Of a stretch of 49,393 nucleotides of DNA, positions 2,712-21,026 are shown one piece after another. The DNA is taken from assembly GCA_036350935.1 (NCBI GenBank), contig JAZBOA010000095.1:1-49393 (forward strand). The letters are read 5' to 3'. The stretch's first letter is position 1, and each line of letters starts with the position of its first letter. The position numbers and the translations under genes were made by a program. The notes under the pieces are model-generated. The model was given only the letters and a program-made list of their open reading frames with translations, was not told where the DNA came from and ran no database searches. Origin of the DNA: Anderseniella sp. (GTDB lineage: Bacteria > Pseudomonadota > Alphaproteobacteria > Rhizobiales > Aestuariivirgaceae).

Positions 2712-3704
2712 ATGAAGAAGACACTCACTGCCCTGCTTGCAGGCGTGGCCCTTGCCGCCACCATGACCACCGCTGCGCTGTCCAAGGAACTGCGTCTGTC
2801 GCACCAGTGGTCAACCAACGACATCCGCCACAAGGTAGCGCAGATTGTCGCCGACGAAGTTGCCAAGGCCAATGTCGATCTCGAAATCAAGATCTTTCCG
2901 TCAGGTTCATTGTTCAAGGCGCGCGAGCAGTACAAGCCGCTCTCGGCCGGCCAGCTCGACATGACCGTTTATCCGCTGTCCTACGCCGGCGGCCAGCGGC
3001 CTGAATTCAACCTCACCCTGATGCCCGGCCTGGTGAAGAACCACGACCATGCCGCCCGCCTCAACAATTCGGAATTCATGCAGGAAATCGAGAAGCTGAT
3101 GGCCGAGGATGACGTGCGCGTCGTTGTGCACGGCTATCTCGCCGGCGGCTTTGCCTCCAAGGACAACTGCATCACCAAGCCCGAGCACGTGAAGGGCCTG
3201 CAGACCCGCGCTGCCGGCAAGGCGTTCGAGGAAATGCTGGCTGCCGCCGGCGCCTCCATCGCCTCGATGGCGTCATCGGAGGTCTACTCGGCCATGCAGT
3301 CGGGCGTGCTGAACGCCGTGAACACATCGTCTTCGTCGTTCGTGTCGTTCCGCCTGTACGAGCAGGTGAAGTGCTACACGCCGGCCGGCGATGTCGCGCT
3401 GTGGTTCATGTATCAGCCTTTGCTGATGAACAAGTCGGCCTATGACGGGCTGACCGACGAGCAGAAGAAGGCGCTCGACGCCGCTGCCGCCAAGGCCGAG
3501 GCCTACTATCTCGAGGAAGCCAAGAAGGAAGACGCCGCCTCCGTCGAGGTGTTCCAGAAGGCTGGTGTGGAAATCGCCAACATGACGCCTGAAGAGTTCA
3601 AGATGTGGCAGGATCTCGCCAAGGAGTCTTCCTACAAGAAGTTCATCGAGAACGCCGGCGAGAGCGGCCAGCGTCTCCTCGACATGGCCCTGTCGGTCGA
3701 GTGA
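2712..3704 (+). CDS. dctP: TRAP transporter substrate-binding protein (malonate, MatP-like)
   Basis: Signal peptide, GGAGGA RBS, DctP motifs (IKIFPSGSL, KGLQTR, SEVYSAMQSG). Confidence 0.92.
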   Translation: MKKTLTALLAGVALAATMTTAALSKELRLSHQWSTNDIRHKVAQIVADEVAKANVDLEIKIFPSGSLFKAREQYKPLSAGQLDMTVYPLSYAGGQRPEFNLTLMPGLVKNHDHAARLNNSEFMQEIEKLMAEDDVRVVVHGYLAGGFASKDNCITKPEHVKGLQTRAAGKAFEEMLAAAGASIASMASSEVYSAMQSGVLNAVNTSSSSFVSFRLYEQVKCYTPAGDVALWFMYQPLLMNKSAYDGLTDEQKKALDAAAAKAEAYYLEEAKKEDAASVEVFQKAGVEIANMTPEEFKMWQDLAKESSYKKFIENAGESGQRLLDMALSVE

Positions 3705-8523: not shown

Positions 8524-8603
8524 GCCCCCGGCGAATGCATTGACGAATGCACAGCATGTCCTAGGCTGGGTTCATCTCGACTGATTGGCCCGGGAGCATG
8601 CAC

Positions 8604-10202
8604 ATGAGCATAGAGCTGTCCTTTCATGGCGCCGCGCGCACCGTTACCGGGTCCTGCTTCCGGCTGAAGACGAGGGCCGGCACGGTGCTTGTCGATTGCG
8701 GCCTCTTCCAGGGCTCGAAGACGTTGCGCGAGCTCAACTATCAGCCGTTTCCGTTCCGCCCGGCTGATATCGACGCGGTCATTCTGACCCACGCCCATAT
8801 CGACCATACCGGCCTGATTCCGAAGCTTACCAGCCGCGGCTTCAAGGGCGCGATACACGCGACGGTGCCCACGGTCGACCTGTGCTCGGTGATGCTGCCG
8901 GACTCCGGCCACATCCAGGAGTCCGAGGTCGAACGCCTCAACCGCCGCAATCGCCAGCGCGGCCACAAGATGATCGAACCGATCTACACCCTGCGCGATG
9001 CGCTTGCCGCGATGGAGCAGTTCACCGGCCATGATTACGAAACCTGGGTGCAGGTGCTGCCGGGCATCCGGGCGCGGTTCTGGAACGCCGGTCACATGCT
9101 CGGCTCATCCTCGGTCGAGGTGCAGCTGGCCGACGGCGGCAACGGCAAACCGGTAACGCTGTTTTTCTCCGGCGACATCGGCCCTGAGCAGAAGCTCCTG
9201 CAGCCAGATCCGGAGGCGCCTGCCGGCTATGACTACCTGCTGTGCGAAAGCACCTTCGGCGCCACCGACCGCGCCTCGACGACGCCGGAGGCCCGCCGCG
9301 CCCAGCTTGCGAAGCACGTTCGCGCGGCGGCTGAGAAGCGCGGCGCCTTGCTCATTCCCTCGTTTGCCGTAGAGCGCACCCAGGAGGTGGTCACCGACCT
9401 GATGCTGCTGATGCACAACGGCGAGGCTCCGGCAGCCCCAGTGTTCATCGACAGCCCGCTGGCCCACCGCGCCACCGAGATATTCCTCAAGCATGCTGGC
9501 ATGCTGGAAAACGGCGCGGCCCTGAAAGCTGCACTCAACTCACCCAACCTGCAATTCTCCGAAAGCGTCGAGGACTCAAAGGCCATCGGCCGGCTGAGCG
9601 GCTACCATGTCGTTATTTCGGCCAGCGGCATGTGCGATGCCGGCCGCATCCGGCATCATCTGAAGAACCACCTCTACCGCCCCAACGCGACCGTGCTGAT
9701 GGTCGGATACCAGGCCCAGGGCACCCTCGGGCGCATTCTCATGGAAGGCGCGCAAACCGTGAAGATCCATGGCGAGGAAGTGGACGTCAAAGCCTCCATC
9801 GAACACATCAACAGCTACTCCGGCCATGCCGACGCTCCCGAACTGGAGCAATGGATCGCCGAACGGCTGCCCGTCCATCGCAACCTTTTTCTCACCCATG
9901 GCGAAGAGGCAGGCATGACCGGCCTCGCCGCGCGCATCGCCGGCAAGCTGGTGCCCTCCGAGCGAATCATCACGCCCGAGATCGACGACACGTTCCGGCT
10001 GGATGGTGAGGTGGCCCGCCAGGTCGACAGCGAGGTGCGCCGGCACATCGACCCGCCGGAGGCAGCGCGCGAGCCGGACTGGAACAACGAGCTCACCCAG
10101 CTCATGTTCGATATCGATGCCGCACTGGAGAAGCAGGCTGGCGGACGCAACCGCTCCAGGCTGATCAGACACCTGCGCCGGGCACTCGAGGAGGCAGGCT
10201 GA
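8604..10202 (+). CDS. Metallo-beta-lactamase-fold beta-CASP ribonuclease (YSH1/CPSF-like)
   Basis: VDCGLFQG, THAHIDH, AGHMLGS, FSGD, FAVERTQE, SASGM, YSGHAD, THGE. Confidence 0.9.
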   Translation: MSIELSFHGAARTVTGSCFRLKTRAGTVLVDCGLFQGSKTLRELNYQPFPFRPADIDAVILTHAHIDHTGLIPKLTSRGFKGAIHATVPTVDLCSVMLPDSGHIQESEVERLNRRNRQRGHKMIEPIYTLRDALAAMEQFTGHDYETWVQVLPGIRARFWNAGHMLGSSSVEVQLADGGNGKPVTLFFSGDIGPEQKLLQPDPEAPAGYDYLLCESTFGATDRASTTPEARRAQLAKHVRAAAEKRGALLIPSFAVERTQEVVTDLMLLMHNGEAPAAPVFIDSPLAHRATEIFLKHAGMLENGAALKAALNSPNLQFSESVEDSKAIGRLSGYHVVISASGMCDAGRIRHHLKNHLYRPNATVLMVGYQAQGTLGRILMEGAQTVKIHGEEVDVKASIEHINSYSGHADAPELEQWIAERLPVHRNLFLTHGEEAGMTGLAARIAGKLVPSERIITPEIDDTFRLDGEVARQVDSEVRRHIDPPEAAREPDWNNELTQLMFDIDAALEKQAGGRNRSRLIRHLRRALEEAG

Positions 10203-11217: not shown

Positions 11218-11991
11218 ATGACTGAACAAACCGACTCCAAGGCCCAGATGAACTCGTCCACCTACACGCTGCCGGCGCTGGACCAGGAGTTCCTGCTGGG
11301 TGATTCAACCCGCGGCATCCGCTTCATGCTGGAGTACATGAAAGCCGAGGAGCACCTGCGCCACTGGGGCATCCGGACCACCATCGTGGCGTTCGGCTCA
11401 GCCCGGGTTACGCCGGAAGACGCAGGCAAGCGCGGCCACTGGTACCGCTCGGCCCTGGAACTTGGCCGCATCGTTTCCGAGCGCGGCGGCGCGCTTGAAC
11501 ACAACGACGGCCAGCGCGACAACGTCATCGCCACCGGCGGCGGCCCCGGCATCATGGAAGCCGCCAACCGCGGCGCCATCCTTGCGGGCGCGCCCACCAT
11601 CGGCTTCAACATCACCCTGCCCCACGAGCAGGAGCCTAACCCGTGGTCGACACCCGACCTCACCTTCAACTTCCACTACTTCGCAATGCGCAAGATGCAC
11701 CTGGCCATGCGGGCCAACGGCCTGTGCGTCTTTCCCGGCGGTTTCGGCACCATGGACGAACTGTTCGAGATCCTGACGCTGGTTCAGACCAACAAGATGA
11801 AGAAGATACCCATCATCCTGTTCGACCGGGAATTCTGGACGTCGGCAGTGAACTTGCAGACCTTGCTTGACGCAGGCACCATTTCGCCAGGCGACGAAGC
11901 CCTGTTTCATTATGCCGAAACTGCCGAGGAAGTCTGGGATCACCTGGTGGCCGGCGGCATCCTGGAAGGCGTGCCATTGCAGGCCGATTGA
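11218..11991 (+). CDS. LOG-family nucleotide phosphoribohydrolase (TIGR00730-like)
   Basis: FGSAR, TGGGPGIMEAANRGA, FAMRK, PGGFGTMDE. Confidence 0.9.
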   Translation: MTEQTDSKAQMNSSTYTLPALDQEFLLGDSTRGIRFMLEYMKAEEHLRHWGIRTTIVAFGSARVTPEDAGKRGHWYRSALELGRIVSERGGALEHNDGQRDNVIATGGGPGIMEAANRGAILAGAPTIGFNITLPHEQEPNPWSTPDLTFNFHYFAMRKMHLAMRANGLCVFPGGFGTMDELFEILTLVQTNKMKKIPIILFDREFWTSAVNLQTLLDAGTISPGDEALFHYAETAEEVWDHLVAGGILEGVPLQAD

Positions 11992-13523: not shown

Positions 13524-13952
13524 TCAGCCTGCGAAGATCAGGTCGTCGTCATCGCTGACGATGTCGCCGAAATGCACCGCCACCAGCGCAACATCCGAGT
13601 CCCGACCGGCTTTCAGCCCGTGCACGACGCCGGCGGGAATGTACAGGCTGTCATCGGGGCTGGCGATCAGCACATCGTCACCCAGCATCACCTCGGCCTC
13701 GCCTGAAACCACCGTCCAGTGCTCGGAGCGGTGTCTGTGATAATGGGCCGGCATCGACTCGCCGGCCTTCACCTCGATCCGTTCAACCCGGTGCCCGCCT
13801 CCGCCGGACAGCACCGAGACCGATCCCCAGCCATGCTGCAGGCAAGGTTTCTCCGCCCCGTTGCGCGGCACCGGATGATAGTCGGCAAGTCTTGCTGAAT
13901 GTGACCTGGGCGCAAGGCGCGCAAGCGGAACCACCGGCACGATGCCAGCCAT
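13524..13952 (-). CDS. Stand-alone cupin resembling the C-terminal phosphomannose-isomerase domain of ManC
   Basis: HGWG...RIEVKAG...HYHRHRSEHWTVVSG...YIPAGVVH; GAGGGAG RBS before ATG 13952. Confidence 0.75.
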   Translation of the reverse strand: MAGIVPVVPLARLAPRSHSARLADYHPVPRNGAEKPCLQHGWGSVSVLSGGGGHRVERIEVKAGESMPAHYHRHRSEHWTVVSGEAEVMLGDDVLIASPDDSLYIPAGVVHGLKAGRDSDVALVAVHFGDIVSDDDDLIFAG

Positions 13953-14062
13953 GACGCAGTCTCCCTCGTGTTCCGGGTGTCCTGCTGCCGTGGCCGAACC
14001 CATTTGCCGGGTTTCTTGCACTCCACGGGGCTGGCGCCACCCGCCTGTTGCTTGTCGAGGCA

Positions 14063-14078
14063 AGCAAGCGGTGGGCCA
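14063..14078 (-). promoter_or_regulatory. Sigma-54 -24/-12 promoter
   Basis: Minus strand reads TGGCCCACCGCTTGCT, i.e. GG-N10-GC within TGGC...TTGCT. Confidence 0.75.
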
Positions 14079-14153
14079 ATGCAGCCGCCGGGCCGAAAGC
14101 GTGGAGAATCCGTCATTGCATCCATCATCGGACATGCCAGACCGAAGCTGGAT

Positions 14154-14190
14154 CTTTGCAGAATGCAAAGCCTGCATCGCAGAATGCAAA
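14154..14190. promoter_or_regulatory. Tandem enhancer (UAS) boxes of the TTGCA-N3-TGCAA type
   Basis: CTTTGCAGAATGCAAAG (14154-14170) and TCGCAGAATGCAAA (14177-14190), 21 bp apart, about 110-130 bp upstream of the predicted sigma-54 start. Confidence 0.72.
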
Positions 14191-14261: not shown

Positions 14262-14420
14262 CTACTTCAGGTCTTCGCTGTCTTCCATCACCTTGAGGAG
14301 GTGCATGACCTCCTTCAGTTCCGGCGAGATGTCCTGATGACGGCGGGTGCGATCCGGAGAGACAGGCTGTTGGCCGTTGCCGTCGGAAACTTCATCCGCT
14401 ATGCGGTTTACGCTGTACAT
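14262..14420 (-). CDS. Small hypothetical protein (52 aa)
   Basis: Below the ORF-track cutoff. MYSVNRIADEVSDGNGQQPVSPDRTRRHQDISPELKEVMHLLKVMEDSEDLK; GC3-rich codons in its 3' half, purine-rich RBS, fills an intergenic gap. Confidence 0.55.
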   Translation of the reverse strand: MYSVNRIADEVSDGNGQQPVSPDRTRRHQDISPELKEVMHLLKVMEDSEDLK

Positions 14421-14574
14421 TGTCCCAGCCCTTCAACTCTGGTCGGAGATGCAGTCTATGACTGTACCTCCTAATGAATCTCTAACCATGCCGGGTAAAG
14501 ATTGCCGCCCGGTCACTGGCTGAACCGTCTAGGCTTGCTTCCGGGCGGAATTTGGACAGGGAGACGACAAAAGT

Positions 14575-20485: not shown

Positions 20486-20892
20486 GCCGTACCGTCCATG
20501 CCGAAGGCGACGTCGCGCCGTGCCGAGCGGATGGAAATGGAATAGCCCGCCACCACGTCGATCAGCGAAATGCCCAGCAGCATGAAGAACGGCGCCGTGC
20601 CCGCCTGCGGCACAAGCAGGAACTCCACCAGCATGGCGATGAACACGCCCGTCGACATGATATGGTCGATGATGGTCAGCGAGCCGACCCGGGCTGCCTT
20701 CAGAACCTCGACGAACAGCAGGAACAGAGCCGCCAGGATCAGCACGTCCGCCCACTGCAGCGCCAGCGATGCGCCCGACATCATGTTGACCCGCACCGCT
20801 TCTGCCCACAGCGAACCGGGCTCCCAGAACGCCATGACGTTGTAGGCAACGAACACCAGCAGCAGCAGCGGAAAGGCAATGATGAAGCGCAT
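20482..20892 (-). CDS. Small hypothetical membrane protein (about four TM segments)
   Basis: Hydrophobic ORF with IIDH and DVVAG; ATGA overlap with DUF924. Confidence 0.75.
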   Translation of the reverse strand: MRFIIAFPLLLLVFVAYNVMAFWEPGSLWAEAVRVNMMSGASLALQWADVLILAALFLLFVEVLKAARVGSLTIIDHIMSTGVFIAMLVEFLLVPQAGTAPFFMLLGISLIDVVAGYSISIRSARRDVAFGMDGTA

Positions 20893-21026
20893 GGGCCGAG
20901 TCTCGTGAATCAGTTTCAGTGCTGACAACGAGGCTTAGATCATTTTCAACGCGACGGCAAAACCAGAAGGCCGGCGAAGCTTCATGCCCCGCCGGCCCAA
21001 AACTGGTCAACCAACTGGTGAGAGCC

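Follow-up and report, generated by a model that had tools for sequence, protein, structure and literature searches.

The window, a stretch of 49,393 nucleotides from an Anderseniella sp. assembly (GCA_036350935.1, contig JAZBOA010000095.1), contains the gene of a LuxO-clade activator convergent with that of a small stand-alone cupin. Behind the cupin gene lie a predicted mRNA leader, a sigma-54 promoter, two tandem LuxO-type boxes and a short unannotated reading frame (Table 1). The cupin starts at the ATG at 13952, not at the TTG at 14189 that opens the mechanically called reading frame. An earlier note, made from the letters alone, had described this layout as tandem boxes 21 bp apart (the first with perfect arms) at −110 and −131, a correctly spaced −24/−12 site, a leader of about 100 nt and a convergent stand-alone cupin, and had proposed from it an alphaproteobacterial LuxO-like regulon with a sugar-nucleotide- or EPS-related output. 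The layout is confirmed here, with one mismatch in the distal box, and the proposal is supported: a LuxO-clade activator, LuxO-type boxes and a sigma-54 promoter are present, and PF01050 together with synteny in sister genera makes the cupin ManC-derived and polysaccharide-linked. Upstream of the activator, and syntenic in the genus, are a LOG-family (TIGR00730-like) gene (11218-11991, +) and a metallo-beta-lactamase-fold RNase-like gene (8598-10202, +).

Table 1. Features of the cupin locus and of the second predicted target on contig C85 of the same assembly.
Feature	Position	Strand	Basis
LuxO-clade sigma-54 enhancer-binding protein, 461 aa	12128..13513	+	NCBIfam, PDB match, residue tables, trees
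Stand-alone cupin of 142 aa, the phosphomannose isomerase (C-terminal) half of split ManC	13524..13952	-	PF01050, alignments, synteny
Predicted 5' leader of cupin mRNA, 100 nt	13953..14052	-	Folds, 19-way consensus, terminator and Rfam searches
Sigma-54 -24/-12 promoter, TGGCCCACCGCTTGCT	14078..14063	-	Sequence; such a site in 27/27 cupin loci
Proximal LuxO-type box	14156-14168	.	Exact TTGCA-N3-TGCAA, centre -110
Distal LuxO-type box	14177-14189	.	One mismatch, centre -131
Unannotated 52-aa ORF (MYSV...ISPELKEVMHLL)	14262..14420	-	Upstream of boxes; in 20/23 other genus genomes
Predicted ~85-nt two-hairpin sRNA (loci L184, L081)	C85:20691-20775	-	Sigma-54 promoter, boxes, terminator

The two boxes are centred two helical turns apart relative to the predicted cupin transcription start at 14052, and GCAGAATGCAAA is found at 14158 and again 21 bp away at 14179. 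Vibrio LuxO recognizes TTGCA-W3-TGCAA at the sigma-54 promoters of qrr genes (motif as quoted in PMC10162802); the spacer within the boxes here is GAA, and hence not strictly W3. Across the genus, box centres fall at about −108/−111, −129/−132 and −152/−154, that is in steps of ~21 bp, the pattern that phased binding with looping would give. An exact box by itself is unremarkable: the 4.6-Mb assembly contains six, control palindromes occur in it 0–8 times, and loose matches within the window numbered 21 against 24.4 expected. Tandem boxes properly distanced from a sigma-54 site, in contrast, occur at just two places in the 4.6-Mb assembly, as judged by a genome scan. Single-box candidates on contigs C629, C187 and C236 were set aside, being without a second box or without proper spacing.

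We then compared the promoter with those of homologous short cupins, which in the 101 genomes searched amount to 27 loci (our own, 18 from other genomes of the genus and eight from sister genera). In 24 of the 27, a sigma-54 site is accompanied by a box that departs from the motif at no more than one position, as opposed to 0.0002 per shuffled promoter, a comparison in which the kin loci are not independent, and a LuxO-like gene converges from within 1.5 kb in 25. An IHF-like site with two mismatches or fewer lies between boxes and promoter in 10 of 19 loci; the window has no good one. Contigs from four metatranscriptome runs of one study include pieces that cross the promoter, so that they may stem from DNA carry-over and say nothing for or against transcription.

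The best family of the activator is LuxO (NF041946; 510 bits against a cut-off of 800, with a lead of 148 bits over the next family), and its best PDB match is V. angustum LuxO (5EP0, E 1.8e-113). In trees from quick searches, which include Aeromonas and Psychromonas homologues and no Vibrio sequences, it groups within a LuxO-like clade apart from NtrC, NtrX, TacA-like and FlbD-like proteins (support 99 and 98). The AAA+ domain is intact (GESGTGKE, GAFTGA, DE and the Arg finger). The HTH is of LuxO type (SPSTIYRK), with the helix residues S, I, Y, R and K kept and the next Leu replaced by Arg; the recognition-helix residues of LuxO are those named in PMC11407668.

The receiver domain retains its fold (PF00072, 63 bits) and carries S59 in place of the phospho-Asp, A87 in place of the switch Thr and S109 in place of the Lys, while R149 replaces the autoinhibitory Gly of the R–C linker (G141/G145 of LuxO). 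The Asp-to-Ser and Thr-to-Ala changes are present in 18 of 18 proteins of the genus (ours counted, one truncated locus and two duplicates excluded), whereas both D and T are kept in all six sister-genus proteins and in all 77 other LuxO-like proteins. The linker position is Thr, Arg or Asp in the same 18 and Gly in 6/6 sister and 57/77 other proteins, as scored by pattern, the other 20 being phosphorylatable relatives without Gly, four of them unscored. No kinase or Hpt gene stands beside the activator in the window; sister genera carry a REC-Hpt gene there. One LuxO-clade protein was found in the assembly. With 685 contigs and a completeness of 95.9%, a gene missing from the assembly is to be taken as not found rather than absent. 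By motif, we also recognized what we take to be its rpoN, hfq and nrdR genes. Judged by its residues, the activator is a pseudo-receiver protein that cannot work as Vibrio LuxO does, because its phosphoacceptor is missing. In Vibrio LuxO this Gly holds the linker within the ATP site, and the G145E change causes a roughly tenfold derepression (PMC4878744). Proteins that have naturally lost phosphoacceptor and linker Gly alike would provide an evolutionary test of the structure-based model of LuxO autoinhibition.

The cupin matches PF01050 with 73.5 bits (cut-off 23.6), shares 40% identity with the sister-genus cupin and 43% with the C-terminal domain of a full ManC, and is not fused to a nucleotidyltransferase domain. 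Its metal ligands (H70, H72, E77 and H111) are retained; the RPWG, LSLQ, HRL.N and GEDDI.R.ED motifs, which sister cupins and ManC share, are altered in the cupins of the genus. At seven of eight sister loci the boxes lie between divergent sigma-54 promoters, one directed towards the cupin and the other towards a PilZ/HlyD gene, which is followed, where the contig extends, by GT2 and nucleotide-sugar dehydrogenase genes. From domain content and by comparison with the Pseudomonas operon, we take these to be alg44-, alg8- and algD-like respectively. An N-terminal half of ManC (~400 aa) without an isomerase domain is nearby in four of the eight sister loci, and we therefore conclude that ManC has been split. 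At more distant loci, full ManC, phosphomannomutase and kinase genes adjoin an Asp-intact activator. In genome G020, the genes for acyl-CoA synthetase and cytochrome found on the flanks of the window locus sit beyond the operon, so that the arrangement in the window is most simply the same locus minus the operon. Alignment and synteny identify the cupin as the isomerase half split off from ManC, a remnant of an alginate-like cluster that sister genera have kept, and its locus would represent a polysaccharide regulon trimmed to a core.

Neither alg44-, alg8- and algD-like genes nor the ManC N-terminal half were found in the assembly (95.9% complete). An alg44-like gene occurs in five of 23 other genomes of the genus, together with a second, Asp-intact activator paralogue (G043), whose locus has TTCGA-type repeats instead of boxes. 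Such a kinase-coupled, Asp-intact LuxO paralogue lies by manC, PMM and the alginate-like operon in L176 (G043; 2860-3200) and L036, and the TTCGA-N3-TCGAA-like repeats in the divergent promoters there suggest a shifted binding site. A type I isomerase was likewise not found in the assembly and a second PF01050 domain only as a short fragment; the cupin may therefore still be the isomerase. It is likely to remain a metal-dependent sugar-phosphate isomerase, possibly of changed specificity. An isolated C-terminal ManC-like gene fragment of ~50 codons lies at C271:4811-4969 (-).

The second tandem-box sigma-54 promoter returned by the genome scan is on contig C85, and the circuit is therefore not self-contained, contrary to what the earlier note had supposed. 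An extended box identical to that of the window (at 20908) and a weaker second box are followed there by TGGCATCGCACTTGCT and by a predicted small RNA. It is predicted to fold into a 6-bp stem with a loop of 16 nt, and ends in an intrinsic terminator (z −3.4). Double changes affect 5 of 20 pairs in an unfitted 18-way alignment and 18 of 20 in a 41-way alignment, which was fitted to the model itself and in which 97% of cells are paired compared with 40–59% in slid controls. Covariance-model searches place the RNA in all 23 other genomes of the genus, as a single copy in each, and in 33 of 97 other genomes of the family. A wider model finds it, across many Rhizobiales families, in 49 of 151 genomes of the order at E <= 0.01; 29 of these matches besides that of our assembly (G000) were inspected, one being judged false, and 19 weaker ones are unchecked or false (G260). 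The two order matches judged false are those in G187 and G260. Outside Rhizobiales, the 16 weak matches in 150 class genomes were set aside, since the five inspected resemble terminators, as do matches in Azospirillum. Plasmid searches found nothing.

A PRK06490 glutamine amidotransferase gene usually precedes the sRNA gene, whose sigma-54 site falls at −23 to −27 with the boxes upstream, and G17, T18 and GCGTA of the loop are invariant among 50 sequences. The RNA is likely to act by base pairing through the conserved 16-nt loop. A target scan of 2610 start regions of the assembly, and of 28 genomes for phaZ, found no conserved target: phaZ was the best of the 2610 (−20.9 kcal/mol) and was rejected because this value is not beyond the shuffled-loop maxima and because pairing at its start codon is unconserved over the 28 genomes (mean cognate −13.4 versus −12.5, permutation p 0.027 with G000 included). 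Rfam has no match to the C85 RNA or its homologues, the Qrr model included.

Among described Rhizobiales RNAs, the C85 RNA resembles EcpR1 (available text of PMC4414408) in its size range of ~80–100 nt, conserved first loop, variable terminator and order-wide occurrence; it differs in the loop itself and in lying by the PRK06490 glutamine amidotransferase gene rather than divK–pleD, and loop and context together exclude EcpR1 as its identity. Compared by description, in the parts of the sources available, there is no sign that it is Met2624 or any of BjsR1-10. The open-access literature, as far as the available text goes (10.1101/2022.01.24.477521, PMC5082802, PMC12316311, PMC4898720 and PMC12403871), contained no LuxO-like regulon or C85-type RNA in Rhizobiales; published dRNA-seq tables may list the RNA without a name. 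The best reading of the sequences is that the C85 RNA is analogous to Qrr yet unrelated to it, shared among Rhizobiales and a member of no catalogued RNA family.

Between the boxes and the promoter of the sRNA is a motif resembling the NrdR box, of which tandem copies lie about 31–32 bp apart in NrdR regulons. The motif is present in 33 of 46 sigma-54-type and in none of 17 other sRNA promoters, and in 10 it is paired at 31–33 bp; on contig C85, tandem copies 32 bp apart occupy 20813-20854. Elsewhere in G000 the motif occurs at C594 (about 215-260), C9:9509 and C470:2165; it precedes nrdJ and, in paired form, genes that are presumably scpA and parA.

We consider it probable that the two promoters constitute a phosphorylation-independent LuxO-type regulon, with the ManC-derived cupin and the predicted C85 sRNA as its outputs. 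The parts of this reading (boxes, promoter, residue changes, synteny, covarying RNA structure and co-occurrence of promoter and activator) are all drawn from sequence. The LuxO-clade neighbour is likely to bind the tandem boxes and to activate sigma-54 transcription without being phosphorylated. Two dimers would occupy the boxes in helical phase, and the AAA+ hexamer would reach sigma-54 by looping, its activity presumably depending on how much activator is present, or on a ligand or partner, and not on a kinase. The ancestral boxes would have served divergent promoters, those of the alginate-like operon and of the isomerase half of the split ManC; in the genus the operon, and the phosphotransfer gene upstream, would have disappeared from this locus, with the cupin and the sRNA kept as outputs.

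Constitutive activity of the activator is something that we infer, because Vibrio LuxO D60A is inactive and the receiver domain is partly inhibitory even without the linker (PMC4878744). Given that inactivity, and given that G145E derepresses only in part in the same study, the activator may still need an input. Also against the main reading are the 20 phosphorylatable relatives without the linker Gly, the 15 orphan relatives with degenerate receivers, most of which have it, and the loss from the cupin of residues common to sister cupins and ManC. An unlikely alternative is that the activator stays closed until a ligand or partner binds at the pseudo-receiver, in which case the cupin, having diverged on the same branch, could be the sensor in a feedback loop. 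Retention of the receiver fold, invariance of the substitutions and the linker-independent inhibition just mentioned would all fit such a switch, and so would the adjacency of activator and cupin in 19/19 loci of a genus in which the alginate-like operon is found in so few other genomes (5/23), and the fact that both proteins have changed signature residues in the genus. Loss of the linker Gly, however, points to derepression, and the adjacency is explained by ancestry.

A phosphorylation-independent LuxO-type regulon also supposes that it is this activator that reads the boxes. Another enhancer-binding protein, or a repressor, could do so instead, leaving the LuxO-like neighbour incidental or inactive: G000 encodes eight strong sigma-54-activator domains, V. 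fischeri offers a case of such boxes serving two activators (PMC10162802), and similar palindromes occur where there is no sigma-54 site. The latter are paired TATTGC-N5-GCAATA sequences between an HxlR-like gene and a divergent cupin gene (L164, L171 and L172), and are probably the HxlR-like regulator's own operator and a look-alike of the box. We regard this alternative as very improbable. The motif is the published LuxO site, the catalytic motifs and recognition helix of the activator are intact, and the boxes of the sRNA promoter vanish in genomes without a LuxO-clade gene though other activators stay. In 52 inspected sRNA loci of known activator status, 40 have the sigma-54 site, a box and a LuxO-clade gene in the genome, 11 have neither, and one (G231, from a genome 94% complete) has site and box with the gene not found; promoter type thus tracks the gene in 51 of 52 genomes, which, the genomes being related, is a pattern and not a statistical test. 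The sRNA copies without a sigma-54 promoter have TTAA/GTAA-N7-TTAA/GTAA-like elements, similar to the consensus for CtrA given in PMC3616915.

The leader of the cupin mRNA forms a small hairpin (14013-13997), and a weak hairpin covers its Shine–Dalgarno sequence (13967-13961). The sequences of the nested stems proposed in the earlier note, CCGTGG/CCACGG (14028-14023/13993-13988) and AACCC/GGGTT (14013-14009/14001-13997), are present, but only the inner one is predicted to pair. Stability of the leader is at shuffle level (z +0.47, with 140 of 200 shuffles as good), and a longer segment of 111 nt gives z −1.43. The 19-way consensus holds seven pairs only, one 4-bp hairpin, kept in position across the genus, and three pairs over the ribosome site, and leader length varies from 80 to 120 nt among loci of the genus. 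No intrinsic terminator was found in the leader, and an Rfam search of it gave no match, the Qrr model included; the leader was therefore rejected as an sRNA, as the note had suggested it might be, or as a riboswitch. The Shine–Dalgarno hairpin recurs in most single folds and, on these models, may tune translation of the cupin. That the locus is a self-contained Vibrio-like circuit whose leader yields the sRNA is scarcely credible, for although the motif, spacing and activator family are right and the small hairpin is conserved, the outer stem is absent from close relatives, the leader has the stability and variable length just described, the activator is without a phosphoacceptor, and a second target lies elsewhere in the assembly.

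Of 151 Rhizobiales genomes sampled, 50 carry a LuxO-clade gene, set apart from other genes by a clear gap in score (E <= 1e-88). Twenty loci of the order were examined: 15 are orphans with degenerate receivers, two are receiver-less and three are kinase-coupled with ManC. The 15 orphans, which mostly keep the linker Gly, cluster together in a tree from a quick search (support 98), and the clade of the genus (100) joins sister and receiver-less proteins with weak support (83). This grouping, in an unrooted tree, suggests that control by phosphorylation disappeared on more than one occasion. The orphan lineage (L368-L373, L375-L377, L379-L382, L384 and L386) extends over many Rhizobiales families; activators without a receiver domain (L239-L242, L374 and L385) are in several cases downstream of a REC-Hpt gene. 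A box with a sigma-54 site was also seen beside LuxO-like genes in 10 of 78 loci, often before polysaccharide or export genes (among them L015, L021, L025, L049, L060, L064, L065, L074 and L078, from Hellea, Pikeienuella, Sphingomonadaceae, Aeromonadaceae and others).

We tentatively extend the phosphorylation-independent regulon to a LuxO-to-sRNA circuit of Rhizobiales, for which the case falls slightly short of balanced. In such a circuit the sRNA would be the conserved output of activators that repeatedly shed phosphorylation control (by Asp-to-Ser change, by deletion of the receiver and in a separate lineage with degenerate receivers), its promoter would be gated by NrdR, and it would have been rewired to a non-sigma-54, CtrA-like promoter where the activator was lost. 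If so, it would amount to an analogue of Qrr by which surface polysaccharide is coupled to cell-cycle or dNTP status without quorum sensing. LuxO-driven sRNA control is known from Vibrionaceae; the Rhizobiales activator, with the same DNA site, appears to drive an unrelated, uncatalogued sRNA.

As in the LuxO/qrr system of Vibrio (PMC4878744, PMC10162802 and PMC11407668, available text), a LuxO-clade AAA+/HTH protein is paired here with TTGCA-N3-TGCAA boxes that precede a sigma-54 promoter by ~110–150 bp, and the predicted outputs include a short terminator-ended RNA. The features of a Qrr (sigma-54 promoter, LuxO boxes and intrinsic terminator) belong to the C85 RNA and not to the terminator-less cupin leader. 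Unlike in Vibrio, phosphoacceptor and linker Gly are missing and no phosphotransfer gene is at the locus; by Rfam the RNA has no relation to Qrr, the second output is a metabolic cupin, and no link to an autoinducer is apparent. Vibrio LuxO takes its input from LuxU and autoinducer receptors, and Qrr RNAs pair Hfq-dependently with the mRNAs of master regulators. The link of a LuxO-like activator to both polysaccharide genes and an sRNA promoter recalls SypG, the LuxO paralogue of V. fischeri that serves the syp polysaccharide locus and activates qrr1 as well (PMC10162802). SypG is, however, phosphorylated (D53) according to the same source, and the polysaccharide genes here are alginate-like and were not found in the assembly. 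The cupin is like type II PMI (ManC/AlgA) in its PF01050 domain with metal ligands, and unlike it in being split from the transferase half, in having its own sigma-54 promoter and in its changed signature motifs.

The 52-aa reading frame upstream of the boxes has homologues in 47 of 120 genomes of the family (E <= 0.05) and no match in Pfam or the Atlas. It probably goes with the neighbouring acyl-CoA synthetase gene, outside the regulon. Its first 11 coding letters after the A recur in the sRNA loop of the same genome, an identity that may be due to chance, as there is no covariation in other genera. Upstream of this reading frame, which diverges from the acyl-CoA synthetase gene, is a CtrA-like TTAG-N7-TTAG at 14471-14485.
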